Shown one piece after another: positions 1-64,000 of a DNA stretch of 64,000 nucleotides. Origin of the DNA: Mytilus edulis (taxonomy: Eukaryota); NCBI RefSeq assembly GCF_963676685.1, contig NC_092345.1, positions 8,184,001 to 8,248,000 of the forward strand, in the 5' to 3' direction. Each line of letters begins with the position of its first letter. The first letter of the stretch is position 1. Below the pieces are notes generated by a model. That model was not told the DNA's origin. It did not search any database and worked only from the letters and a program-made list of their open reading frames with translations. Both the position numbers and the translations under genes were made by a program.

Positions 1-792
1 GTTCAGGTGTGTGTGGTTAGGTTTTAGACTTACTGTTAGGTGTTTGTGGTAAAGTTTTAGACTTACTGTTTAGGTGTTTGTGGTTAAGTTTTAGACTTAC
101 CGTTCGGGTGTGTGGTTAGGTATTAGACTTACCGTTCGGGTGTGTGTGGTTAGGTTTTAGACTTACCGTTCAGGTGTGTGGTAAGTTTTAGACTTACTGT
201 TTGAGTGTTGTGGTTAAGTTTAAGACTAACCGTTCGGGTGTGTATGGTTAGGTTTTAGACTTACCGTTTGAGTATGTATGGTTAGGCTTTAGACTAACCG
301 TTCGGGTGTGTGTGTTTAGGCTTAAGACTTACTGTTCAGATTTGTTTGGTTATGCTTAATACTTATCGTTCGGGTGTGTGTAGTAAGGTTTTATATTTAC
401 CGTTCGGATGTGTGTGGTTAGGTTTTATAACTTGCCATTCGGGTGTGGTGGTTAGGTTTAAGACTTACTGTTCGGGTGTGTGTTGTAAGGTTTTAGTCTT
501 ACCCTTTGAGTGTGTGTGTGATAATGTTTAGACTTACCATTCAGGTGTGTGTGGTTAGGGTTAAGAATTACCGTTCGGGTGTGTGTGGTTAGGCTTAAGA
601 CTTACCGTTTGAGTGTTTGTGATAAGGTTTTAGACTTACCGTTCGGGTGTGTGTGGTTAGGTTGTAGACTTACCGTTCGGGTGTGTGTGGTTAGGTTTTA
701 GACTTACCGTTCAGGTGTGTGTAGATAGGTTTTAGACTTACTTACCGTTTGAGTGTTTGTGGTTAGGTTTTATACTTACCGTTCGGGTGTGT
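1..792 (-). repeat. ~34-bp tandem array (>=22 copies, truncated by window edge) made of the exon end plus splice donor of the LU gene
   Basis: Sense-strand unit acacacccgaacg|gtaagtctaaaacctaaccac; its first 13 nt equal the last 13 nt of exon 894-780. Confidence 0.9.
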
Positions 793-3700
793 ACACGATT
801 GATTATTACATTTGTCTGTAGTGCAACACTTCTCACAAACGTGTAACTGTCCAGTTCTCTTCCCAAAACCTTCTTGATCTGCTACTTTACACAACTATAA
901 AACGACAACTTGATAATAACCAGTCAAACTGATTAGAATATAGATAATGTGTCCATGTTAAAGGGATAACTTAACCAGACATAACTTAACGTATGTATAC
1001 ACAGCTAAAATGGTAATACCTGGTATTATAGAAGAATAAAAAAAAAATATGTAGATTTTGTCTGTGTTTGATTTTTCAAGATCTGAGAAAGGCAGCCATC
1101 TTTATTCGTGTATATTTCACCCTAGTTTGTTCAATAAACACATTTGCGTGCACATCGATTCGGCAAGCAAACAAAAAATTGCCAAAATAAAAATTTATGA
1201 ATTAATTATGGTTAAAGAAAACACATATGTTGTCACTTTTTTAATTGATGAACTGTCATTAAATAACGGCATTCCAAATTAAACGTTTTATTGGAGATCA
1301 TGTAAAAATCGGACAGTAACTTGTATCTTTTACCAGATTTGAATTTATTATACTCAGTCTAAGACGTGTAGTTTTGGAGCACATTTTACAGAGTACGGCT
1401 TATCTGTTTGCGATGCTATGTACCAATCGACATTAGATTTATCGAAACCCTTTGATAGTATTGAAAATATGCCGAGGCGATGTTTTCGACAGACTAACAG
1501 AGCCAATCACCCTGAAAACACGCCAAAACAGCATTGGAAAGTCTCGTTATAGTTTGCGTCCACACACGTAGACAGGGGCGTAGCTAGAAGAAAACGATGG
1601 GCAAGCAACTACCCAATTTTTGGACCCTTTAATGCAGAAAAAATGTTTTTTTTTTCGGTTTTCGGTCATAGGACGGTTTAAAGAGGAGCTACATGTAGAT
1701 AGGACTTATAAACACTTTATGAATGTATAACTAATAATACTTGAATCTTCTGAATAGAGTAAATCATGGTTAATTTAATACATAAACAACACATTTTTGA
1801 ATTACAGAATTTACTCAACATTGACCAAAATCTGCTCTTCGGGTCTAAGCAGAAACGAACTTCTCCCAGACTTTAGACTACAGACTTAATACATTGATAG
1901 ATCTGCATGGTGGCACTCGCGAGATGTTATAAACCAGCGTACGTATTCTCTGTCGAGCGACCTCCCGATTGAAATTGTCAAAATACATGCCAGGTCATTT
2001 TGTATGTCTCATACAATGTTGAGAATTATTCGTGGGTTATATTTCCTACAACACAACACGAGGAAGCAGATACGACACAAAGAAGCTATTTTCTGATAAT
2101 ACCAGACACTCTCGAATTCCATTATCATATGGTCTACCGTCATTATACATAATGCAACATAAAGTCAAGGAGACAAATTATCTCATCAATCAATACATCA
2201 TCCCATCAATCAATAAATCATCCCATCAATTAATAAATCATCCGTGCAATCAATAAATCATCCCATCAATCAATAAATCATCCGTGCAATTAATGAATCA
2301 CCCGTGCAATCAATTAATCACCCGTGTAATCTATGAATCACCAGAGCAATCAATGAATCACCCGTACAATCAATTAATCACCCGTGCAATCTACAAATCA
2401 TCCGTGCAATCTACAAATCATCCGAGCAATCAATGAATCATCCGAGCAATCAATGAATCATCCGTGCAATCAATTAATCATCCGAGCAATCAATGAATCA
2501 TCCGAGCAATCTATAAATCATCCGAGCAATCAACCAATCAATCTATCAATCTATAAAGCATTCGATAAATCAACAGATCAATCGATTAACTAATAAATCA
2601 TTTGATCAATCAATAAATTAAATGATCAATCAATAAATCATTTGGTCAATCAATAAATAAATAAGTCGACCAATAAATAAATCAGTCGATCAATCAACAA
2701 ATCTGTTAGTCAATCCGATACAGTTTTAAGAATGTAAGGCTAACCGATTCATTTACTTGTTGTTTTCCTTAACATTAGAGTTTTTAAATTTTATTGTGTG
2801 CGTGTTCCCTGAATTTATGAAATGAAAACACAGTAGATGAAGAAAGAATAAAGAGGGGGAAAAAAAAGATAAAACCATTTTAATAAAATATTTATACTGA
2901 CCTGGCTAGATTTACATCCAACGTTATAAAAAACGTATAAATTATCATCTATCACTTGTTCTGTATAGCATTGCTAGAAGAGGAAAAATATGAATAAAAT
3001 GAAGTAGTTCTTAGTCTAGTTTATACACAAAGTGAAACTGTAAAGATTTGCAAACGAACAACACAAATCGGCTACATCCTTCGTTCTCAGTGATTGTAAA
3101 CATGCACCAAACCAGTTACACCACTCATACTCAATGATTGAGTACATGAACCAAACCAGTCACACCATTCATACTCAGTGATTGAGTACATGAACCAAAC
3201 CAGTTATACCACTCATACTCAGTGATTGTATACATGAACCAAACCAGTTACACCTATCATACTCAGTGATTGTATACATGAACCAAACCAGTTACACCTA
3301 TCATACTCAGTGATTGTAAACATGAACCAAACCAGTTACACCTATCATACTCAGTGATTGTATACATGAACCAAACCAGTTACACCTATCATACTCAGTG
3401 ATTGTATACATGAACCAAACCAGTTACACCTATCATACTCAGTGATTGTAAACATGAACCAAACCAGTTACACCACTCATACTCAGTGATTGTATACATG
3501 AACCAAACAAGTTACACCACTCATACTCAATGATTGTATACATAAACCAAACCAGTTACACTACTCATACTCAATAATTGAGTACATGAACCGAACCAGT
3601 TACACCACTCATACTCAGTGATTGTCTACATGAACCAAACCAGTTACACCACTCATACTCAGTGATTGTATGCATGAACCAAACCAGTTACACCACTCAT

Positions 3701-6700
3701 ACTCAGTGATTGAGTACATGAACCAAACCAGCTACACCTATCATACTCAGTGATTGTAAACATGAACCAAACCAGTTACACCTATCATACTCAGTGATTA
3801 TATACATGAACCAAACAAGTTACACCACTCATACTCAATGATTGTATACATAAACCAAACCAGTTACACCACTCATACTCAATGATTGAGTACATGAACC
3901 ACACAAACCGGTAACACCACTCATAATCAATGATAGAATCCATGAACCACTCAAACCAGTAACACCACTCATACTCAATAACTGAATTCATGAACCACAC
4001 AAATCAGTTACACCACTCATACTCAATAATTGAATACACGAACCACACAAATCAGTTACACCACTCATACTCAATAATTGAGTACATGAACTAAACCAGT
4101 TACACCACTCATACTCAGTGATTGTATACATGAACCACACAAACCAGTTACACCACTCATAATTAATGACTGAATACATGAACCACACAAACCGGTTACA
4201 ACACTCATACTCAATGACTGAATACATGAATCACACAAACCAGTTACACCACTCATACTCAATAATTGAATACCTGAACCACACAAACCAGTAACACCAC
4301 TCATACTCAATAATTGAATACATGAACCACACAAACCAGTTACACAACTCATAATTAAGGATTGAACACATGAATCACACAAACCAGTTACACCACTCAT
4401 ACTCAATAATTGAATACATGAACCACACTAACCAGTAACACCACTCATACTCAATAATTGAATACATGAACCACACAAACCAGTTACACAACTCATAATT
4501 AATGATTAAATACATGAACCACACAAACCAGTTACACCACTCATAATCAATAATTGAATACATGAACCACACAAACCAGTTACACCACTCATACTCAATG
4601 ATTGAATACATCAACTACACAAACCGGCTGCACTACTCATACTCAATGATTGAACACGTGAACCACACAAACCGGTTACATCACTCATACTCCATGATTG
4701 AACACATGGACCACACAAACCGGTTACACCATTTATACTCCACGATTGAACACATGGACCACACAAATCGGTTACACCACTCATACTCAATAATTGAATA
4801 CATCGACCACACAAACCGGTTTCACCACTCATACCCAATTATTGAATACATGAACCACACAAACCAGTGACACCACTCATACTCAATGATTGAATACATG
4901 AACCACACAAACCGGTTACACCACTCATACTCAGTGATTGAATACATGAACCACACAAACCAGTTACACTACTCATACTCAATGATTGAATACATGAACC
5001 ACACAAACCGGTTACACCACTCATACTCAGTGATTGTATACATGAACCAAACTGGTTACACCACCCATACTCAATGAGTGTATACATGAACCACACAAAC
5101 CAGTTACACAACTCATACTCAATGATTGAATACATGAACCACACAAACCGGTTACACCACTCATACTCAATGAGTGTATACACGAACCACACAAACCAGT
5201 TACACCACTCATACTCAATTATTGAATACATGAACCACACAAACCAGTAACACCATTCATACTCAATAATTGAATACATGAACCACACAAACCAGTTACA
5301 CCACTCATACTCAATAATTGAATACATGAATCACACAAACCAGTTACACCACTCATACTCAATAATTGAGTACATGAATCACACAAACCAGTTATACCAC
5401 TCATACATAATGATTGAATACATGAACCACATAAACCGGTTACAACACGCATGCTCAATAATTGAATACATGAACCACACAAACCAGTAACACCACTCAT
5501 ACTCAATAATTGAATACATGAACCACACAAACCAGTTACACCACTCATAATAAATGATTGAATACATGAACCACATAAACCAGTTACACCACTCATAATT
5601 AATGATTGAATACAAGAACCACACAAACCAGTTACACCACTAATAATCAGTAATTGAATACATCAATCACATAAACCGGTTACAACACTCATACTCAATG
5701 ATTGAATACATGAACCACACAAACCGGTTACACCATTCATACTCAATGATTGAATCCAGGAACCACACAAACCAGTTACACCACTCATATACATTGATTG
5801 TATACATGAACCACGTGCATGCAAACCAGTTACACCACTCATACTCAATTATTGAATACATGAACCACACAAACCAGTTACACCACTCATACTCAATTAT
5901 TGAATACATGAACCACAAAAACCAGTAACACCACTCATACTCAATGATTGAATACATGAACCACACAAACCGGTTACACCACTCATACTCAGTGATTGAA
6001 TACATGAACCACACAAACCGGTTACACCACTCATACTCAGTGATTGAATACATGAACCACACAAACCGGTTACACCACTCATACTCAGTGATTGTATACA
6101 TGAACCAAACTGGTTACACCACTCATACTCAATGATTGAATACATGAACCAAACCGGTTACACCACTCATACTCAATGATTGAATACACGAACAACACAA
6201 ACCGGTTACACCACTCATACTCAATGATTGAATACATGAACCACACAAACCGGTTACACCACTCATACTCCATGATTGAACACATGAACCACACAAATCG
6301 GTTACACCACTCATACTCCATGATTGAACGCATGAACCACACCGATTACACCACTCATACTCTATGATTGTAAACATGAACTACACTAACTGATTCCAAT
6401 GTAGACAAACCATCAAAGACTACATACCTCTCCTGGTGAACATTGAGTGGTCTGGATACAGTACCTTGGTTCAAACACTCCTTGACACGAAAGACATCGT
6501 AAACCTTAACATACAGAAAAATATATGTTACTTTTAAATCAAACGAAAAAAAAATATAATACGATCGCGAGAGGCGGATCCAGGGTGTCGACAGATGCAC
6601 GTCACAGCCCCCTTAGCAAACACATTATCAAATTGACAGAATTAAAATAAAATATTGAGAATTTTGTACTTGAAATACATTAATTAATTCTCAGATAAAA

Positions 6701-8026: not shown

Positions 8027-9462
8027 GTCTCTGAGCGAAAGTGATAAGAGAAGTTGAACTAGGACAATACTATCTGTACAATTTTAATCAAGAATTAATG
8101 TCAGGTAAATTCCACGATAAAATACCTGAAATTTGGCATTTCAACTTCAGATATACATAAAAACAATTGTTTGACTAATCATGGCTTTCGAAAATAATGA
8201 AATGAAGAGTCGTCTTCGTATTTAATGACATCGACATAAATTAATTGGTACTAACTTTTTTCGACAAATTCAACAACTTACATGTATATTTAACAGTCTA
8301 TCTTGAAATTGACAGGACAACCATTGATGATATTCTTGATTTGAACAGAACAGGCAAGCGAACGTATTGCATGTTCATGCGTTTTTCAACCCTTCAAACC
8401 CGACCACTAACAGAACAAAATTCTGATGAAGTCCGTGGAAAAGTACAGATAAAATAATAACACTGATACCGTATTAAACAATGTTACCAGTACGTGTAAT
8501 AGAAATCAAGCCGTTGCTGGTCCTTTAATAAAAATGTCTAGTACATAGGAAGCTGCATTATATTTAGTACATTTCATGCAGCATCGCCATACACAGTATA
8601 AGAAGAAATGTTTTGTTTAGGTATTGCTTACAGTAAATGTACTAAATTGTGTCATAGTAATCTCAGTTTCAATACCGAAAAATGAAAGAAACGTCTTAGG
8701 ATCTCTTACTTTTCACGTTCAGTGTTTCAAACTACATTTGTCACGTAAAGCAACCAACAATCAATCAATCAATCAATCATTTGTCACCAAAAATATCCGA
8801 AGCACTGAATTGTTCAACAATAGTATAACAATATTCTCTATCAACCTGTTTGATGTCCCAAATGGACAGACTTAAATGACTTTGCCCAAACTTCAAGCTT
8901 TCACTATATTAATGAGTGTTGCTGTGTCAAAGGATTGATGTGAAATACCAAGTTTTACCCATTTATCGAGGGAGGAAGCAGTGTACATGATGTGCCAAAA
9001 TCGTTCCTTTTTCCATATATGAAAAAGAATACGAATAATGTGTAATATCAAGGCAAGGATCTGTCACTTAGATTGCATGGTTTTCTCTTCTTTTTAGAAT
9101 TTACAAGTCATTTATACATCAGTCAAATTCGATTTTTAAATAAGTATAGCTGTTTTCAACCGATTTAAGACAGATGGGAAAGCCTGGTTGTTTTCTGCTT
9201 TAACGTAATCCGATTTTTGTATGAGTTCAGTTGTGTTTTTCTTTGCGAAACTGCTTTCCCCAGAAAACATTCTAACCTAATTACTTTGACTACAAAAAAA
9301 ATATTCCGGATATATACATCGCCATTACCGTGTTTGTAAAAAATATATATATAAAATTCATCCAATGAAATCGTTCGACACATACGCTTAGCAACACGAC
9401 GCCATCAACTGCTGCATAATATTTTTAATTTAAAAAACCGATTAATTTATCAAATTTCCGTT

Positions 9463-22250: not shown

Positions 22251-46790
<24,540 letters not shown>

Positions 46791-51002: not shown

Positions 51003-54000
51003 ATGGAGAATGCTGAATGTATATACCATACTGGCCCAGTTACAGCACTTCATGTAGAAGGCACCTACATTATTGCAGGTTTGTATGGTGAATAGATAAC
51101 ACATGTATTAGATACTGGTATATCTTATATATCAACTTAGAAAATCTCAATCAAATCCTGTCAGTTAAATGGAAACTAATGGTGAATTTGAAGACATTTA
51201 TAATCACAATATCTTGTTTATAATTTCAAAGAACTTGCAATCTATGATTCTATTTTTTATCCCCCCGCTGTAGCAGTGGGGGCATTAAGTTTTACCCTTG
51301 TCCGTCCGTACATACGTCCTATAATTGGTTTCCGTTCTCTAACTTTAGTTTGCCTCAACCAAATGTTATGAAATTTATACACAATGCTTATTACCACATC
51401 ACACAGGTCAAGTTTTAATTTTTGTGGTGTTACTTTTACTGTTCTAGAATTATGGCCCTTAACAAATGGAAATAATTGCTAAAGTTTTGTTTCCCCTTCT
51501 CTTACTTTAGTTTGCCTCAACCAAACTTATACACAATGCCTATTACCACAATACACAGATCAAGTTTGAATTTGGATAGCATCCCTTTTACCATTCTAGA
51601 GTTATTCCTTTTTACAAATGAAAATTTGGTGGCATCACTTTTCCTTCTATTGAGTTATGCCCCTTTACAAATTGAAAATAAAGTTTTACATTTTTGTTTT
51701 CTAACTAAAGTTTGCTTCAAGCAAATTCTATGAAAGTTATACACAATGTTTATTACAACAAAACTCAAATCAAATGTGGCTAGTGTCACTTTTACTGTTC
51801 TTAAGAAATGTCCCTTAATAATGTTACAAAATGTACATGCAAGCAGGGGCATCATATGTGTCACATGGACACATTACCCATTTATTTCATAAATGATTTA
51901 TACACTTCATTGGGGCACACTATGTTTGCGCGCATTTGGGGATTAAAATGTTTTACGTTTGTGCGCAGCTTTCGATTACATTTGCACGCATTCATTTTAC
52001 AGGTAAACTGAGGTAAAAATATAAATCAAAATTAAATCAAATTGTAATTGACTATATATTATTTTTATTTTCATAATAAATATGACTATCAATTATTAAT
52101 TTTGAAAACATTTCCTAAGTCAAATTATATATTGTTCATTGTGAGTATTTCAGGATGAAAAGTGTTTCAACTTATAGTGTTCGTTTTTAAAATTAGTAAA
52201 TAATTCAAATTAGTTTGTGAAGTTACACCAAGGTACAAACTTGGAGTTTCGGCACGTACCGACATGTAAAGTAATGAATTTATCCATACTTTTAACTTTA
52301 TTAAACAGCTATGTTTTAACATTTTAAAATTTTAACATTTTCATATGGATATATTTCTAGGATTTAGTGCTTGTGCATAATAAAACGGACTTATCTTGCT
52401 CGAAATCCCACTTCCATCTCATCGTTGGTGAGCAGTAGACCATGATTAACAGGATTGAGTACTTATTACTTACAACTTACAACTCCCGTTAGCGCCATGT
52501 GTCGCATAGGGCGCGAATTGAGTACTTATACTTATTAATAATTGAACAAATTATAAATAAGTAAGTGTTATCACCTGTATTTACCTGTCAAAAAAATGCG
52601 CGCAATTGTAATCAAAAGCTGCGCGCAAACGTAATGATTTTTGCGCACAAATGTAATGGTAATGCGCGCAAACGTAATGCACCGCTTCATTGTACTATAA
52701 AATATTTGTTGAGATTGTTTGCCCTTTTTTACTTTGCATTCTGAACTGGGTATGATATGAAGTAAATTTAATTCAGTTAATGGAGACAGGTAATGTTAGA
52801 TAATATCAGAGATTATATTTGAAGCTAATTATTAATTTTGACATTGTTTCAGGTTGTATGACAAAATGTATGATGATAAAACTATGCAATGTTTGTTTCA
52901 GGTAGTGGTGATTACTTGTACTTGTATGACAGTAAAACTACCCAATGTTGGCAAAGGCTCTCAGCATTAACTTGTACAAGAATTCATGGGATAAGATCAG
53001 GTATGTGATCAACCCACATAATCACCCACATTCACACAACCAATGTCTGCAGTATCCATTTTAGACTAGACTTTACCTGAAATAATGTGATAATCTATCT
53101 AAAGAAGTAAAACTTAGGATTTTGAATGATACTGTTTTGTATTTCCTAATTTTAATTGGATCATCCTTTTCTGTTTTTTAAAATTCCTTTTTTAAAATAT
53201 GTATGCCACAACTTTATATTGACCAAATACAACTTTATATTGACATTTTACATTGATGGCAAGACTATCATTTGATCAATTCTTTGAGAATTCAAAGTTT
53301 GTGAAATATCCAACATAAAATGATGTATAGCATTTATTTCAATGGCAATCATATTTGTAATATTTTAGACAACAATGGCCAGTTGTGTGCTTTTGGTGAG
53401 AAGAGAGCCTGTATTGTAACCATAGATACAGATACATTGTCACACACAGATAGGAAGACTCTACTTCAGGATTTAATCTGGGATTCACAGTTCTTAAAGG
53501 TTTGTATTATATGATCTTCAGAACAGTTAATAATTGTGTAGTATGTTGGTTTCATTGTCTGAAAGGGAACAGGTGAACAGTTTTATCAATTTTAACCACT
53601 GTGAATTCAGAATTTATGTTGAATTTATTAATTTAATTTGGAAAAGTTATTTAAAAGGTTGCGCATGGGAATTGGTTTTCTAGCTTTAGCATGTTTCATG
53701 TGTTTGGGGAAACAATACATGTATGAACTCACATAAAATTTTCTTTATGTTTTTCCATATTCATCAAACATGACCATTCTTACGTACAAACAGAATTTGA
53801 ACAGTATTTTAAACTTGATTTTGTTCTATTTACACAGATTAAAGGTCAGGTTGTTTTTGCTTTGGCACACAACACCATTGTTAGATGGGACAGCGGTAAT
53901 GATAAGATTCTGGACATTGTACAGTGTGAAGAAAACAGTATTCTGTATCCTTACTCTAAGATGATAATCAAGCATCACACACACCGTGAATTTTATTAAT

Positions 54001-57000
54001 ATCGAGTATTATCGAGGATTGATGATATATTATATTTTAACTGATATTTGAATGAGTGTTGTTTTTTGGTTTCTTAATTCTTGGAAAAAATCTGCTGAGG
54101 ATTCATGTCATGAACTAAGCATTCAGATATTTCAAATATTGGGGTGGGATGGGGTGGGGTGCAGTTTCTTTTCAACTTTCTTCGGAGCGGCTATTTGTCG
54201 TCTAAGATAGAAAAACAAATGAAAAGTTTGATACAACTATTATTTCATGGTTTTAGCATAAAAGCGAATTATAAGAATTAAAAGCATGCACAAACGTTTA
54301 GAAGGAAGCCATTCTGCACCGCATACAAAATGTGCAATGGCCAAAGCTTTTATACAGAATAACAGCATAAAAGAAGCATTTAATTCTTATTTATTAAATA
54401 AGGAATTGCATTTTCAGGACAAGCATTATTTACTGTGCTTAATTTTATCTTAATTCTATATTTGTGTAACACGAACTATTTATATAGTTTAATGAATTCT
54501 TTTATCTCATTGTTATATTGCAGTTATTTAAAAAGCTTTCTTTAATAGTAGATTTTCAGATACTGTGCACGTTTTATTACATCAAGTTGGGAGAATTTGA
54601 TTTTAGCTGCTGGAACAGTAACAAATCAAGTTTTGTTGTGGTCACCTAATACTACAAGAAATAGTTTGGGACTTTGCACAATAATTCACAGGTTCAAAGG
54701 TCACCAGGTAGGTATTAATGTTGTTTATATTTCTTTATTGGTGTAGAAAAATTAAGAATTCCACAATTGAAGATTTTGTTTAGTAGAAAAAAATATTAAA
54801 AACAAAATGCATTATAAACACATGAATACATATTCAAAAGATGTAAAGTTTTAATTTAACTTAGATTGTTACAAATCTGCAAATTGGCTGCATGCCTATG
54901 TGAGCAAGTCACTTATAATTCCGGAGTTTATTCAATGTATAACTGGTTAAGTTATATTTTTATTGTGACATGGAAACACTGGAAAGAACATATCATGATA
55001 ATGCAGAAATGAAGATTTGAAAATGAACGTAGAAGTAAATTGTTGTACCTAGGCCCTTTTAATAACATCTGTAGGAATACCTGCCACATTTTGTTAATTA
55101 GTAAAATAAAGATCAATCATCAACTATGTCACTTCTATCAGCCTTAACTTACACCTGGCTACAACAAGAATATTTAATTACAACTAAATTCAAATACTGA
55201 GGTGCCTGTCTTTGGACATGCAACCTTATGGTAACAGGATTAAATTAGTGATTTAGCTCTCAAACTCTAAAAAGTTAAATGCATGGACAAAGTGTCTTAC
55301 TGTAATAAAATCTAGTATTGATTTTTATTCTTTTCAATTTTTAATAGTAAAACTTCTTTATCAATATTATTTCAGGGTGTTATTTTCTCGGTGCGATACA
55401 ACACACAAAGACAGCAAATTTGTTCTGTTTCTGATGACAGGAGCATTAGAATATGGCAAATGACCTTTCCTGGTAGGATTACTATGGTAACAGATGACCT
55501 TGACATAGAAGATTGGACTGGGTGTCAGAGCACTCCACTACATGTTTTATATGGACATTCAGCCAGAGTCTGGGACATCAATTTACTGAGTAACGTTATG
55601 ATCAGTATTGGCGAGGTAATTACTAAATAATTTATACATTCTATGATTTTGTTGTATGATACCTCATATCACCTAACAGGAATTAATGAACAAATAGAAT
55701 TTTTATCTTTTTATAAGTAGAAAAATTTCTAAATACCACTTATGGAAATCAGAATACAATCAGATATTAAAAGTCAACTTAAAATCTTTTTATTATGATA
55801 TACATGTAGTTTAGTGTGATACTAAGCACATAATATTAAAGTGAAAATGAATATTATATAAAGTACATTTAAACCAATAAATGTGATTTTTTTCAGGACA
55901 GTTTATGCTGTGTATGGAACTACAATGGAGAGGTCATTCAAAAATTTAAAGGTCACAAGGTAGTTGTTCTTCGTAAATTTATCTTGTTAATTTCCTTATA
56001 TACAGTTTTGTGTGATAAGTAATTAAACATTGTTGTACTTGCTACCTAGTCATTTCATAGCAACCCATGCCTACATTGAGCAACCAATTAAATCTGCTTT
56101 AAACGTGCAGTAAATATTTTCTGACCAATTGGATAAATAAATTTTTAAATGTGTAATGCAGTCCAACAAAGATGCCTGGGTGTCCACCTTGAGAGGATTT
56201 TATCTTTCTGTGAGAATTAGCAATTTTACTTGTTTTCATGCTACTCAGCCATCTCATTAAAATTGATTTCGAACTTTAATTTAAATTTTTAAAGAAAAGC
56301 TTGAATCTTACAGTAGAGTAAGTTTATTTCTTATTAAAAGGAAATTATAATATAGACATTGCAATTTTGATCAGAGCATTATATTTTATACTGTACATGA
56401 AGATGCCACTAATTAGTGATGTTTTCAATTATCTACTGTATGTATGTACTACAGTAGAGATCATTTAAACTGTACCGGTACATTATAACCGGTCTGCAAT
56501 AGAAAGAACTTTTAATTAACAGTTGTGAATTGAAGCAACAGAATTATACTGATCAGTTTTGCATAATTTACATGAGTTGTTAATAAAAGTTTCATTTTTC
56601 AATCACCATCAGACAGGCAATATACAACATTTTCCTGCTCTTTTGTTAAACATTAAAGAATTACCAGTAATGATTAGATATTGAGCCATGTTGCTGTCCT
56701 TGTTCCTGATGATAAAATTGCTGTTTGATTTCAATGTTGTCTCAAATGACATTCTTTTGGCACTGGGATAAAAATTATATGATCTAATGAGTTCATAATT
56801 TTTATTTGCAGGGAAAAAGTATATGGAGTTTAGCTGCAGATAAAAAGGAACAGTTTTTTGTAAGTATAAAAATGTATTGTTATTATACCCCCGCTTTAAA
56901 AAAGGGGGGTATACTGTTTTACCTCTGTCTGTCAGTCCGTCCGTCAGTCCGTCAGTCAGTCCGTCCCATGAAACTTTCGTCACATTTTTCTCAGGAACTA

Positions 57001-59744
57001 CACATCCACCCTTTCTGTAATTTGGTATCAACATTTATATATGTTAGCCATACCGTGTGATGCGTTTTCAGATTCATCACTTGACAACTTCCTGTTTACC
57101 GAACACTTGTATGATTTTACACATGATAGCCAAGTTGAAAATTTTCGTCACATTTTTCTCAGCAACTACAATACAAGGATTTCTGAAATTTGGTTTCAGG
57201 ATTTATATAAGTCAGCTATACCGTGTGATGCGTTTTCAGATTCATCACTTGACAACTTCCTGTTTACCGAACACTTGCATATTTTTACACTATTAATATT
57301 ATCCACTTGCGGCGGGGGTATCATCAGTGAGCAGTAGCTCGCAGTTTCACTTGTGTATATTGGTTTTAGATGCATACCAATGGATGATAAAAGACTGGAG
57401 AAAAATGTTTAATGTTTTTGATAACTGAAGGACACTCATATTTTTAAAAAGAACATGACCAGTATACATGACCAGTATACCAGCTGAAGGACGCCTCCGG
57501 GTGCGGGAATTTCTCGCTACATTGAAGACCTGTTGGTTACCCTCTGCTGTTGTTTTTTATTTGGTCGGGTTGTTGTCTCTTTGACACATTCCCCATTTCC
57601 ATTCTCAATTTTATGGTATAGTTGTAATAGTCAGTTTCTATTTTTTGTAATTCTGAATAAACTATGTGGAGTTTAAAGTACTGTTTTTTCCATATCAATC
57701 TTCTAATTTTCTTCACAAAAAAGAAATACCTTATAGATTTGCGAATGGAAATGGGGAATGTGTCGACAACAAACTGACTAAAGAGTAAAAAATGCAGATG
57801 AAGGCCACAGCAAGATAATCCTGCAACTGGAGGAGGACCTCTGCTGGCTCCTAAACAAAAATGTATTTTTGCTATCAAAACTTGTAACTTGGTTAATGGA
57901 AATGACTCTGTGATCTTTACATGGAGATGTAGGAAAAATGACAGCCTTGTGAAAAATGGACAACTATGATTATTTTTCTTTTCTGTAGGTCACTGGTGGT
58001 GGTGATACCAGTATCAGATTGTGGAAACTTAATGTTGCAGAAAACCAATCAGTGAATAAGTTACATAGTCAAAGTCTACCATTCCAGAATGAAAATGTAA
58101 GTACCTGACTTGAACAGCTATAGGTAAATTATCTCAGTGCATACTTCATTGAAAAAAATCCAATTCCGAAATTTTTATCTCAAATGGATGTCAATGTTAA
58201 TTGTGTAAAAAATATATGGGTTGGATGTATATGAGACAACAGATAAAACCCACAATGAGCCATTGTATTTAAAAGATATAATTATGCTCTCATTGCCATT
58301 CTCTTCTTGGTGACATCACTTTCACCATTCTGGGGTTATGCCCCTTAATAACATTATATGCAAGACGGGCATCATCTGTGTCCCATGTCTCCATTTTGTC
58401 CCTCACTGCTTGACATAACTTTAAACAAACAGAAGAACACAACATTGAGTATATTCAAAACAGATGAGGAGTTTTACAAATAGATAACACTTGCTAATTC
58501 CTATTTTTGTTTTACAGGATTTTGTTAGAGTTGTGTCCCTTTGGAAATCAGATTATGTTATAGGAATTACAGATGAAGGGTAATTATAAACATGTGACCT
58601 TGAACTGGCAATATCTTAATAAGAAAATACTGAAAGTATGTGGATGGCAAATATATACTTCTTTCATAGAACATTATTATGCCTTCTCACACACTAATAC
58701 CAGCTGTCATACCTCTGAATAGATTTTCTAAAGGAATGTCAAGAACAGTTAGAAAAACAACTTTTCATTAGTTCAGAGCTTTTAGAATTTCAACATCACA
58801 GTAACTGATAGGTTTGTAACCAAGATAAGGAAATACATCTGTTCAGACTAAGTAGAACAGTTTAGATAGTGTTGCCAAAAATGGTTCTGAAAGCACCATG
58901 TTCTTTTTGAAGGGTAGAATGGTATACAAATAATAAATTTTAGTGGCCAAATTCATGTTAAAATTTGTTGTTTTAATTCAATGTTTTATTTTGCAGGTCA
59001 CTTTTGATCCATAGCTTAATAGATAATAAAACCTCAGTGATATTTAAAGATCCTAACTTTAAATCGTATACCGTGATAGCAGTATCCCATGTGATAGCTC
59101 TAGGGAATATCAAAGGGACTATACGTCTTGTATATTCAGGTAAATATTATATAGAGCAGTAACAATATTCCAGCTTTTAATTTTGAGGAACATCAGAGGA
59201 ATTCTATAGGCCTTTTATAATGCTGACTATACAGTATAAATATTGCTTGTTGTTGAAAGGACATACAATGACCTAAAGTTGCTTAAATCTGCACATTTGC
59301 AATCACACCTCATATACTTATTTTGTAATGAGCAGACTGATTTTCTTTTAAAGCTTTATAAAATTGACAAAAAAAGTTTAGGAATCTTGCTTATAAATAA
59401 AGTTTGTTATGAAGTTTTATCATGCATTGCAATTGACACAATAAAAATATTATTTGATCTATCAATTCCCAGTATTTTTTCAATAGACCAAACTCTGCCT
59501 TAACTATTGTCTTCAAGTGCCAATTTTAAAATTTGTTTATTTAAGTGAACAAACCTGTTTAGTGTTGCTAGTATTACACATACATTTAAGTAAATTGATC
59601 ATGTTTAGAATTTTGTGATTTTCAGAGAATCTGACCGACATGAAGTTTAGATGGACTGATTATGATATCTATAAAGGGAAAGTACTCTCTATCCACTGGC
59701 TGTCAGAAGATCTTTTGTTAACCACTGGACCAGACGGACTTATT
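51003..59744 (+). CDS. WDR6: WD-repeat protein 6 (Trm734-like tRNA methyltransferase partner), 5' part; continues beyond the window
   Basis: Exons 51003-51078, 52902-53000, 53369-53499, 53838-53944, 54560-54707, 55376-55615, 55897-55959, 56812-56859, 57989-58096, 58518-58579, 58997-59139, 59626-59744, phase-compatible. Motifs GPVTAL, FALAHN, LAAGTVTNQVLLW, GHQGVIFS, SVSDDRSIRIW, GHSARVW, SIGEDS, GHKGKSIWSL, TGGGDTSIRLW and GKVLSIHW...TGPDG match the WDR6 family pattern as I recall it. Confidence 0.85.
51255..51880 (+). mobile_element. Helentron-associated (HINE/DINE-1-like) element
   Basis: ttttatcccccc..ggggcatta start hairpin, gtccgtccgt microsatellite, three degenerate internal repeats (tttatacacaatgc.tattaccaca), and a ggggcatcatatgtgtc end. 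Confidence 0.6.
51915..52690. mobile_element. Probable MITE with degenerate inverted termini
   Basis: gtttgcgcgcatt / gcgcagctttcgattaca at the left pair with tgtaatcaaaagctgcgc / aatgcgcgcaaac at the right. Confidence 0.55.
53945..54559 (+). other. Probable U12-type (minor spliceosome) GT-AG intron in WDR6
   Basis: Donor GTATCCTTA; branch-like tttctttaat ending ~13 nt before the acceptor AG; splicing gives in-frame CEENSIL-YCARF. Confidence 0.7.
56880..57355 (+). mobile_element. Helentron-associated (HINE/DINE-1-like) element inserted ~20 nt after a WDR6 donor
   Basis: ttatacccccgc..ggggggtata start, (GTCY)n microsatellite, two ~168-bp internal repeats (ataccgtgtgatgcgttttcagattcatcacttgacaacttcc), subterminal inverted gcgggggtat, and 3' stem gtgagcagtagctcgc. 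Confidence 0.7.
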
Positions 59745-62700
59745 GTAAGTATGTTGATATCTATAAAGGGAAAGTACTCACTATCCACTGGCTGTCAGAA
59801 GATCTTTTGTTAACCACTGGACCAGACGGACTTATTGTAAGTATGTTGATATCTATAAAGGGAAAGTACTCTCTATCCACTGGCTGTCAGAAGATCTTTT
59901 GTTAACCACTGGACCAGACGGACTTATTGTAAGTATGTTGATATCTATAAAGGGAAAGTACTCTCTATCCACTGGCTGTCAGAAGATCTTTTGTTAACCA
60001 CTGGACCAGACGGACTTATTGTAAGTATGTTGATATCTATAAAGGGAAAGTACTCTCTATCCACTGGCTATCAGAAGATCTCTTGTTAACCACTGGACCA
60101 GACGGACTTATTGTAAGTATGTTGATATCTATAAAGGGAAAGTACTCTCTATCCACTGGCTGTCAGAAGATCTTTTGTTAACCACTGGACCAGACGGACT
60201 TATTGTAAGTATGTTGATATCTATAAAGGGAAAGTACTCTCTATCCACTGGCTGTCAGAAGATCTTTTGTTAACCACTGGACCAGACGGACTTATTGTAA
60301 GTATGTGGATATCTATAAAGGGAAAGTACTCACTATCCACTGGCTGTCAGAAGATCTTTTGTTAACCACTGGACCAGACGGACTTATTGTAAGTATGTGG
60401 ATATCTATAAAGGGAAAGTACTCTCTATCCACTGGCTGTCAGAAGATCTTTTGTTAACCACTGGACCAGACGGACTTATTGTAAGTATGTTGATATCTAT
60501 AAAGGGAAAGTACTCTCTATCCACTGGCTGTCAGAAGATCTTTTGTTAACCACTGGACCAGACGGACTTATTGTAAGTATGTGGATATCTATAAAGGGAA
60601 AGTACTCACTATCCACTGGCTGTCAGAAGATCTCTTGTTAACCACTGGACCAGACGGACTTATTGTAAGTATGTGGATATCTATAAAGGGAAAGTACTCA
60701 CTATCCACTGGCTGTCAGAAGATCTTTTGTTAACCACTGGACCAGACGGACTTATTGTAAGTATGTTGATATCTATAAAGGGAAAGTACTCTCTATCCAC
60801 TGGCTATCAGAAGATCTTTTGTTAACCACTGGACCAGACGGACTTATTGTACATTTGTAAGTATGTTGATATCTATAAAGGGAAAGTACTCTCTATCCAC
60901 TGGCTATCAGAAGATCTTTTGTTAACCACTGGACCAGACGGACTTATTGTAAGTATGTGGATATCTATAAAGGGAAAGTACTCTCTATCCACTGGCTGTC
61001 AGAAGATCTTTTGTTAACCACTGGACCAGACGGACTTATTGTAAGTATGTTGATATCTATAAAGGGAAAGTACTCACTATCCACTGGCTGTCAGAAGATC
61101 TTTTGTTAACCACTGGACCAGACGGACTTATTGTAAGTATGTTGATATCTATAAAGGGAAAGTACTCTCTATCCACTGGCTGTCAGAAGATCTTTTGTTA
61201 ACCACTGGACCAGACGGACTTATTGTAAGTATGTTGATATCTATAAAGGGAAAGTACTCTCTATCCACTGGCTATCAGAAGATCTTTTGTTAACCACTGG
61301 ACCAGACGGACATATTGTAAGTAAGTTGATATCTATAAAGAGAAAGTACTCTCTATCCACTGGCTATCAGAAGATCTTTTGTTAACCTCAGGACCAGACG
61401 GACATATTGTAAGTATGTTGATATCTATAAAGGGAAAGTACTCTCTATCCACTGGCTGTCAGAAGATCTTTTGTTAACCACTGGACCAGACGGACTTATT
61501 GTAAGTATGTTGATATCTATAAAGGAAAAGTACTCTCTATCCACTGGCTATCAGAAGATCTTTTGTTAACCACTGGACCAGACGGACTTATTGTAAGTAT
61601 GTTGATATCTATAAAGGGAAAGTACTCACTATCCACTGGCTATCAGTAGATCTTTTGTTAACCACTGGACCAGACAGACTTATTGTAAGTATGTTGATAT
61701 CTATAAAGGGAAAGTACTCTCTATCCACTGGCTGTCAGAAGATCTTTTGTTAACCACTGGACCAGACAGACTTATTGTAAGTATGTTGATATCTATAAAG
61801 GAAAAGTACTCTCTATCCATTGGCTATCAGAAGATCTTTTGTTAACCACTGGACCAGACGGACTTATTGTAAGTATGTTGATATCTATAAAGGGAAAGTA
61901 CTCTCTATCCACTGGCTGTCAGAAGATCTTTTGTTAACCACTGGACCAGACGGACTTATTGTAAGTATGTTGATATCTATAAAGGGAAAGTACTCTCTAT
62001 CCACTGGCTATCAGAAGATCTCTTGTTAACCACTGGACCAGACGGACTTATTGTAAGTATGTGGATATCTATAAAGGGAAAGTACTCACTATCCACTGGC
62101 TGTCAGAAGATCTTTTGTTAACCACTGGACCAGACGGACTTATTGTAAGTATGTTGATATATACAAAGGGAAAGTACTCTCTATCCACTGGCTGTCAGAA
62201 GATCTTTTGTTAACCACTGGACCAGACGGACTTATTGTAAGTATGTTGATATATACAAAGGGAAAGTACTCACTATCCACTGGCTGTCAGAAGATCTTTT
62301 GTTAACCACTGGACCAGACGGACTTATTGTAAGTATGTTGATATCTATAAAGGGAAAGTACTCACTATCCACTGGCTATCAGTAGATCTTTTGTTAACCA
62401 CTGGACCAGACGGACTTATTGTAAGTATGTTGATATCTATAAAGGGAAAGTACTCTCTATCCACTGGCTGTCAGAAGATCTTTTGTTAACCACTGGACCA
62501 GACGGACTTATTGTAAGTATGTGGATATCTATAAAGGGAAAGTACTCTCTATCCACTGGCTATCAGAAGATCTTTTGTTAACCACTGGACCAGACGGACT
62601 TATTGTAAGTATGTGGATATCTATAAAGGGAAAGTACTCTCTATCCACTGGCTGTCAGAAGATCTTTTGTTAACCACTGGACCAGACGGACTTATTGTAA

Positions 62701-64000
62701 GTATGTTGATATCTATAAAGGAAAAGTACTCTCTATCCACTGGCTGTCAGAAGATCTTTTGTTAACCACTGGACCAGACGGACTTATTGTAAGTATGTTG
62801 ATATCTATAAAGGGAAAGTACTCTCTATCCACTGGCTTTCAGAAGATCTTTTGTTAACCACTGGACCAGACAGACTTATTGTAAGTATGTTGATATCTAT
62901 AAAGGGAAAGTACTCTCTATCCACTGGCTATCAGAAGATCTTTTGTTAACCACTGGACCAGACGGACTTATTGTAAGTATGTTGATATCTATAAAGGAAA
63001 AGTACTCTCTATCCACTGGCTGTCAGAAGATCTTTTGTTAACCTCTGGACCAGACGGACTTATTGTAAGTATGTTGATATCTATAAAGGGAAAGTACTCT
63101 CTATCCACTGGCTATCAGAAGATCTTTTGTTAACCACTGGACCAGACGGACTTATTGTAAGTATGTTGATATCTATAAAGGGAAAGTACTCTCTATCCAC
63201 TGGCTGTCAGAAGATCTTTTGTTAACCACTGGACCAGACGGACTTATTGTAAGTATGTTGATATCTATAAAGGGAAAGTACTCACTATCCACTGGCTATC
63301 AGTAGATCTTTTGTTAACCACTGGACCAGACGGACTTATTGTAAGTATGTTGATATCTATAAAGGGAAAGTACTCTCTATCCACTGGCTGTCAGAAGATC
63401 TTTTGTTAACCACTGGACCAGACGGACTTATTGTAAGTATGTTGATATCTATAAAGGGAAAGTACTCTCTATCCACTGGCTGTCAGAAGATCTTTTATTA
63501 ACCACTGGACCAGACGGACATATTGTAAGTAAGTTGATATCTATAAAGAGAAAGTACTCTCTATCCACTGGCTGTCAGAAGATCTTTTGTTAACCACTGG
63601 ACCAGACGGACTCATTGTAAGTATGTTGATATCTATAAAGGGAAAGTACTCTCTATCCACTGGCTATCAGAAGATCTTTTGTTAACCACTGGACCAGACG
63701 GACTTATTGTAAGTATGTGGATATCTATAAAGGGAAAGTACTCTCTATCCACTGGCTGTCAGAAGATCTTTTGTTAACCACTGGACCAGACGGACTTATT
63801 GTTAGTATATGTTGATATCTATAAAGGGAAAGTACTCTCTATCCACTAACTGTCAGAAGATCTTTTGTTAACCACTGGACCAGACGGACTTATTGTAAGT
63901 ATGTTGATATCTATAAAGGGAAAGTACTCTCTATCCACTGGCTATCAGAAGATCTTTTGTTAACCACTGGACCAGACGGACTTATTGTAAGTATGTTGAT
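59664..64000 (+). repeat. 92-bp tandem array (>=47 copies, truncated by window edge) = last 81 nt of a WDR6 exon + 11 nt donor
   Basis: Period 92 (gatatctata at 59664, 59756, ...). The first copy is coding DIYKGKVLSIHWLSEDLLLTTGPDGLI followed by gtaagtatgtt. Confidence 0.97.

Follow-up and report, generated by a model that had tools for sequence, protein, structure and literature searches.

Tandem repeats that begin across an exon-intron boundary have been described before. In human genes, minisatellites whose first monomer spans such a boundary are known from F7 (a 37-bp variable number tandem repeat in intron 7), 6-16, CBS, LAMIN B2, and PDGF, and splicing at the nearest pseudo-donors occurs in some of the human cases (PMC1557585). 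In lancelets, the so-called mirages were reported in Adh3, the globins BflGb6 and BflGb9, TnC, and PGBD5 (PMC3087553; PMC3902484), and their origin was called unclear (PMC3087553). Within segmental duplications of the human genome, variable tandem repeats at exon-intron boundaries were also found to lengthen the introns (De Grassi and Ciccarelli 2009, PMC2812944). Here, we describe an array of 92-bp units at the end of exon 12 of the WDR6 gene of the mussel Mytilus edulis, a donor-spanning minisatellite of the same kind as that of human F7 intron 7 and the lancelet mirages. The DNA analyzed, hereafter the window, is a stretch of 64,000 nt (G000:C2:8184001-8248000) from a genome of 1.37 Gb. Among titles and beginnings of abstracts, with subscription journals largely uncovered, no paper was found that treats the WDR6 locus, similar arrays in Mytilus or other molluscs, or exchange between an array and its exon.

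The exon 12 array of WDR6

The array comprises 73 units of 92 bp (6.7 kb), joined head to tail and within the size range of about 10-160 bp typical of donor-spanning minisatellites. Forty-seven units lie inside the window, where Tandem Repeats Finder (TRF) reported positions 59663-64000 with period 92, 47.0 copies, and 96% matches, in line with the at least 47 near-identical copies of the exon end claimed in a first-pass annotation made from the sequence alone. Extension of the contig, which that annotation had advised, placed the array end 2.4 kb beyond the window at C2:8250409 and exon 13 at C2:8250586, so that intron 12 measures 6841 nt from the first donor and 183 nt from the last. Each unit consists of the last 81 nt of exon 12 and 11 nt of intron 12, GTAAGTATGT(T/G); the annotated composition, 81 of the 119 exon nucleotides plus 11 from the intron, was borne out by the spliced map. 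The first monomer spans the real exon-intron boundary, with the exon 12 end at 59744 in both the spliced map and the RNA joints, and the later monomers repeat the donor without an acceptor. GTAAGT is retained in 72 of the 73 units, as "nearly all" in the annotation had implied, and the real acceptor, with its AG at 59624-59625, was rightly placed outside the unit, which starts at 59664. The features of the locus are as follows.

51003..59139, + strand: WDR6 coding exons 1-11 (exact spliced alignment of P0001; one copy in G000)
59605..59625, + strand: true acceptor of exon 12, AG at 59624-59625, outside the repeat (spliced map; 10.2 bits)
59626..59744, + strand: WDR6 exon 12, 119 nt, of which 38 nt are unique and the final 81 nt belong to array unit 1 (spliced map)
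59664..59755, + strand: unit 1, working exon end and first donor (identical to the array consensus)
59664..59668, + strand: GATAT, likely breakpoint microhomology with ancestral intron positions +12 to +16 (X1/X6 terminal alleles, P0076 read-through)
59745..59750, + strand: first 5' splice site GTAAGT, likely the used one (spliced map and RNA; the choice among identical donors is deduced)
59756..64000, + strand: units 2-47 of 73, all intronic, with a pseudo-donor but no acceptor in each (TRF, genome matches, spliced map)
59811..59813, + strand: TAA reached by read-through or by use of donor 2 or later (frame reading)

The gene identity proposed by the annotation was confirmed by the protein mapped to the locus, P0001, named by its source [quoted passage not shown]. 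Its exact spliced map contains 24 GT-AG exons from window position 51003 to 13.8 kb beyond the window end, and the search of its own genome gave one match; a PDB search returned generic WD40 matches only. All 73 matches of a DNA search with the unit, a lower bound, lay at the WDR6 locus, and so did all 63 exact matches of the junction pattern in the genome (control, 0), which sets the unit apart from a dispersed satellite family. The unit (59664-59755) contains four 6-bp palindromes, GATATC, AGTACT, AGATCT, and GTTAAC, convenient for cutting the array down to monomers.

The unit junction was present, together with high unit depth, in all four DNA runs, which come from four studies and two organism labels (X1 and X6, label A; X8 and X12, label B). 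These reads cover the two ends of the array, and contig depth, which is not a copy number, is read here as tens of copies. The unit contig reached a depth of 1975.5 against 14.3 and 44.8 in the flanks in X6, 792.4 against 11.2-12.8 in X8, 1207.3 against 14.8 in X1, and 655.4 against 13.2 in X12, the depth inflation for which the annotation had suggested looking. Because the unit stands at many times flank depth in four DNA runs under two labels, the WDR6 array is not an assembly artefact. In X6 the unit formed a single circular contig of 122 nt identical to the consensus, while X1 and X12 gave many variant contigs (22 and 38 records on the 3' stretch). The terminal unit differs among the assembly, X1/X6, and X12. 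Array length is likely polymorphic between animals, as the annotation expected. Depth ratios (with the same caution about contig depth), terminal units, and internal variety differ among the four runs.

One unit copy in the WDR6 mRNA seen

Nineteen raw RNA reads (10 in X22 and 9 in X23) and six RNA contigs were available at the locus. The joint from exon 11 to the true acceptor of exon 12 is covered by 2 + 5 reads, and seven raw reads of X22 pass from 59744 straight into exon 13. An RNA contig of X15 likewise joins the end of exon 12 to exon 13 over a GT..AG intron, and two X15 contigs reach upstream into the non-repeated beginning of exon 12. RNA depth is 0 at 59755-59790, and none of the 19 reads enters unit 2, which bears on the annotation's call to search for distal donors; in the same 19 reads, there was no joint going back 92 nt and no excess of depth over the unit. 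The X15 library contains the unit junction at a low depth of 3.7. Among full-length or near-full Mytilus protein models, the unit motif is single in 13 of the 13 that contain it, and P0089 is without the motif. The WDR6 mRNA seen thus carries one copy of the unit; these data are thin, coming from 19 raw reads of animals that may or may not carry the array and from contigs that cannot link the unit to its flank.

The annotation held that the units are not alternative exons, and this was upheld. No AG within the unit scores as an acceptor, the best reaching 1.3 bits against 1.8-16.8 bits for 45 true acceptors, and the cryptic site it had singled out, ataaag/gga, is poor. The units therefore do not have what a tandem alternative exon has, its own acceptor and donor with the frame kept. 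Splicing from donor 2 or any later donor leads to a stop at TAA 59811-59813, the position at which the predicted read-through stop, TGT TAA in unit 2, was located.

Exon definition is an established principle of splice-site recognition. Together with the experiments on human F7 (PMC1557585), it makes it likely that the first donor is the one cut, and selection of that donor would proceed by exon definition or by 5'-to-3' scanning. The stop codon in the last unit of the assembly was considered as proof of first-donor use and dropped, as none of the four DNA runs carries it; it is private to the assembly or an error and was not used as support.

Variation, putative origin, and likely exchange with the working exon

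Across the 73 units, the 81 exon-derived nucleotides show 22 distinct substitutions, and there is an 8-bp insertion in four units and a 2-bp insertion in one. The three variants named in the annotation are the commonest (ctg/cta in 23, ctct/cact in 16, and gtt/gtg in 11 of the 73 units); its statement that copies differ at only a few recurring sites stands for these and understates the rest. Seventeen units, unit 1 among them, equal the consensus when all 92 positions are counted, and the last unit differs from it by its intron end. The mean pairwise difference is 2.6% (68 units of exactly 92 bp), and two variant types are stop codons. Rare variants are clustered along the array (span 163 versus 294, P 0.003), and for this reason growth by unequal crossover or conversion appears probable. 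Slippage between adjacent units or a higher-order repeat was rejected, with lag 1 unenriched and lags 4 and 18 nominal only (P 0.02 and 0.04 of 10 lags), and so was instability driven by hairpins, the two-unit fold being no better than shuffled sequences (z -0.24). By TRF matches, the array is, as annotated, the most homogeneous in the window, by a narrow margin (96% versus 95, 91, 89, and 80%). That it is also the youngest is unproven: it occurs under two organism labels, its consensus equals the working exon, and its variants match alleles of that exon, and its homogeneity may for these reasons reflect turnover and exchange and not youth.

The breakpoint can be read from the terminal units. 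In the assembly the last donor reads GTAAGTACAG, with only 7 nt common with the junction, and in X1 and X6 the terminal alleles are 17 nt longer and give the intron start GTAAGTATATGGATATTGTAGGTACAG. There, GATAT at intron positions +12 to +16 stands in exact 92-bp register with GATAT in the exon (59664-59668), and by chance matches of at least 5 nt would occur at about 0.008 of random breakpoints. The short junction microhomology reported in the annotation is thus a 5-nt match visible only with these longer alleles, in view of which a 3-bp untemplated insertion at the junction was dropped. Mispairing at this match is the likely origin of the array, judging from the sequence. The junction base is T in most units and G in 11 of the 73, the two types expected from exchange one base either side of the match. 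The model P0076, named M. trossulus, reads ...GLIVSMWIF through the end of exon 12, which fits a start like GTAAGTATATGGATATTGTAGGTACAG with G at +9. It runs 17 nt into the intron and omits the start of exon 13 (IVSMWIF instead of IHCYELSSVENG); its exon 12-13 junction is likely a model artefact that nevertheless records the intron start. This single protein model suggests an array-free allele in the M. trossulus-named assembly.

Copies sealed off in an intron and neutral would be expected to have about a quarter of their substitutions synonymous. In the exon frame, 11 of the 22 variant types are synonymous against 5.6 expected given the mutation spectrum (P 0.004). All four differences of expressed alleles within the unit (59672, 59702, 59724, and 59726) are also variants of the array (P 0.001; P 0.01 with the synonymous class held), and with three differences added from the models P0074 and P0076, 5 of 7 are shared (P 0.01; 0.03). 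The changes at 59724 and 59726 occur together in expressed reads of X23, and the same pair occurs together in unit 19. In the other eight exon-end arrays pooled, 24 synonymous types were found versus 18.3 expected (P 0.04); two of the eight, those with at least 60 exon-derived bases, lean likewise (P 0.035 and 0.05). Because the units cannot be exons and yet show both a synonymous excess and shared variants, the simplest reading is that array copies likely exchange sequence by recombination, in one or both directions, with alleles of the working exon. In X22, the unit was found to diverge less than exon 11 (1/81 versus 10/143 listed sites); this contrast was rejected as nonspecific, since the first 30 nt of exon 13 match too.

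We are largely confident of an explanation that joins these parts: a 92-bp piece of exon 12 and intron 12, repeated 73 times, which began by mispairing, is spliced at its first donor, and trades sequence with the working exon. A single repair or crossover event, mispaired at the 5-nt GATAT match, would have founded a duplication, which later unequal recombination would have expanded to 73 units; splicing would take the first donor, leaving a single copy in the mRNA, and the intronic copies would exchange sequence with alleles of the working exon. The array is probably without a function of its own and tolerated because a duplication on the donor side leaves the exon intact. Several points weigh against this explanation. 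Neither short reads nor contigs can tell identical donors apart, and RNA coverage is thin (19 raw reads and six contigs). Over the 143 nt of exon 11, the alleles of X22 and X23 depart from the window at 10 listed sites, and these animals may or may not carry the array. The stop codon of the assembly's last unit was found in none of the four DNA runs, and neighboring units share variants at chance level (lag 1: 15 versus 13.3). The synonymous test was chosen after the variants had been seen, singletons, which could be assembly errors, make up 6 of the 11 synonymous types, the allele list holds seven sites from three sources, and only WDR6 passes clearly among nine arrays tested, six of the other eight showing nothing. 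The 72-bp array of SKI2, the neighboring gene, has no breakpoint microhomology by eye. Separately, X8, a DNA run with the same organism label as X22 and X23, shows no exon 11 differences from the window (58997-59139).

The same anatomy could be the outcome of a neutral young array that never traded sequence with the exon; chance, recurrent mutation, or assembly error would then account for the excess of synonymous types and for the shared variants. This account, which differs from the preferred one only in the exchange step, is a real though clearly weaker possibility: the low divergence (2.6%), the array-free allele suggested by P0076 in a close species, the absence of an excess in six of eight other arrays, and the post hoc choice of the tests speak for it, and it is opposed by the significance of both tests with the mutation spectrum held (P 0.004; 0.001-0.01) and by the pairing of 59724 and 59726 in expressed X23 reads and in unit 19. 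We consider it improbable that the array is a regulatory decoy whose 72 extra donors bind U1 or feed nonsense-mediated decay, array length tuning the WDR6 level. GTAAGT is kept in 72/73 units, every distal donor gives a premature stop so that such transcripts would be degraded and under-counted, nearest pseudo-donors are used in some human cases (PMC1557585), and an X15 contig of depth 3.7 crosses the unit junction. Yet none of the 19 RNA reads enters unit 2, with about 70 copies present the X15 contig is compatible with pre-mRNA or DNA, the conservation of GTAAGT does not exceed that of the remainder of a 97%-identical unit, and arrays are unenriched at donors in a blind sample of 1.4 Mb (4 of 151 calls versus 2.6 expected).

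Under exon multiplication, the units would be coding repeats, either spliced or read through, and selection would account for the synonymous excess; three extra units also restore the frame arithmetically. This account is largely refuted, and we give it hardly any credence, given that the unit has no acceptor (best 1.3 bits), read-through stops, two variant types are stops, and all models and the RNA seen carry one copy. An assembly artefact or a strongly inflated copy number is just as implausible: the terminal unit of the assembly, 17 nt shorter and with a stop, appears in none of the four runs, against which stand the junction and high unit depth in all four DNA runs from four studies and unit variants that recur and cluster.

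Beyond the preferred explanation, we raise tentatively the idea that the intronic array is a recombining reservoir for exon 12, with alleles moving both ways and intron-born amino-acid changes entering WDR6, and that the same would apply at a few thousand mussel exon ends, where arrays with at least 60 exon-derived bases would keep a coding signature while untranslated. Candidates for such changes are a Thr-to-Ser replacement in expressed X23 reads and a Leu-to-His replacement in P0074, each of which also occurs among the array units. If exchange runs both ways, arrays of this kind would contribute, so far overlooked, to coding variation and to false selection signals in non-coding DNA. The array is in addition a large natural test of 5' splice-site choice in an invertebrate, one of 73 near-identical donors, and a hazard for mussel variant calling, read mapping, and gene models, as reads from 72 intronic copies would pile on exon 12.

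Other exon-end arrays and comparison with known systems

In WDR6 and SKI2 together, donor-side arrays occur in 3 of 45 introns and acceptor-side arrays in none of the 45. SKI2 lies on the opposite strand (P0091 map, 23 exons, 46786-22254) and has, on the minus strand, 52 bp x 64 after exon 3 (window 41747-45106) and 72 bp x 6 after exon 16 (30132-30563); in the 52-bp array, in contrast to WDR6, four non-synonymous sites separate most copies from the working exon. At window 1-792, minus strand, an array of 34 bp x 43, which begins 671 bp before the window, follows a cysteine-rich exon ending ...SCTHPN before GTAAGT, and this exon had no Pfam match. A further array, 48 bp x 70 at 3108-6390, begins about 40 nt after a donor, perhaps of the same gene as the 34-bp array, and is itself without a clear donor. 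An LDL-receptor-like gene (L089/L090/L092, C2 about 8.119-8.145 Mb, minus strand) has three arrays at exon ends, one of 52 bp x 21, one of 73 bp x 4 that follows an EGF exon, and one of 68 bp x 5 that follows an LDLa exon. Within WDR6 itself, two introns (window 53944; exon 18, C2:8253672) start with GTATCCTT and finish in AG, the signature of minor (U12-type) introns, and are candidates for that class.

In 349 kb around the window, a region selected because of the WDR6 finding, 37 arrays gave six donor-type calls versus about 0.8 expected, one of them false by the WDR6 model, and two acceptor-type calls versus about 0.7 expected, one of them spurious; two more exon-end arrays were seen there by eye. 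These counts used a relaxed classifier, the strict one having missed WDR6 itself. In the blind sample of 14 blocks of 100 kb (1.4 Mb), chosen by round coordinates, 151 arrays gave four donor-type calls versus 2.6 expected and two acceptor-type calls versus 2.1, and a genome-wide preference of arrays for splice donors was rejected; motif counts in the first 10 blocks were 15/65 versus 14.8 and 3/65 versus 6.3. Three of the blind-sample calls appear genuine: those at an SRCR exon and at a BTB exon, both Pfam-supported, and an 81-bp x 31 array without Pfam support. The last (L104-L105, C8 about 8.008-8.011 Mb, minus strand) follows an 81-nt candidate exon and has one open frame of about 660 codons; its period is divisible by three, so the frame would survive both read-through and the use of distal donors. 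Polarity toward donors only was likewise rejected, since acceptor-side arrays exist at the BTB-domain exon (L149:1718-2754, C12 about 45.052 Mb) and at a FAD-binding exon near the window (L087 about 8722-9341). They repeat the intron end and exon start, with an intact domain only from the last copy; use of the last acceptor, if true by RNA, would argue for exon definition over first-site scanning. Extrapolation gives about 2-3 exon-end arrays per Mb, a few thousand per genome, a frequency that would follow from minisatellites arising anywhere and surviving where the exon stays whole.

With the F7 type, the WDR6 array shares a first monomer made of the exon end and the authentic donor, identical pseudo-donors after it, and probably one normal mRNA (PMC1557585). 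It differs in having 72 extra donors versus 4-25 in the cases described there, a coding part of 81/92 nt versus 4/37 in F7, and a mollusc host. Signs of exchange with the working exon in WDR6 have no counterpart in the available part of PMC1557585. In the survey of PMC2812944, paralogues are compared, whereas WDR6 is single-copy. The likeness to lancelet mirages lies in an invertebrate, minisatellite-like duplication at an exon boundary (PMC3087553, PMC3902484), in splicing that is probably normal and length instability that is likely in WDR6 too, in concerted evolution with a distinct terminal unit, and in donor- and acceptor-side forms, both also present in the mussel genome. WDR6 has 73 units versus 3-7 in the globin and PGBD5 cases, and its breakpoint microhomology is readable, whereas PMC3087553 leaves the origin of mirages unclear. 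What is new here is the synonymous excess and the variants shared between the array and expressed alleles.

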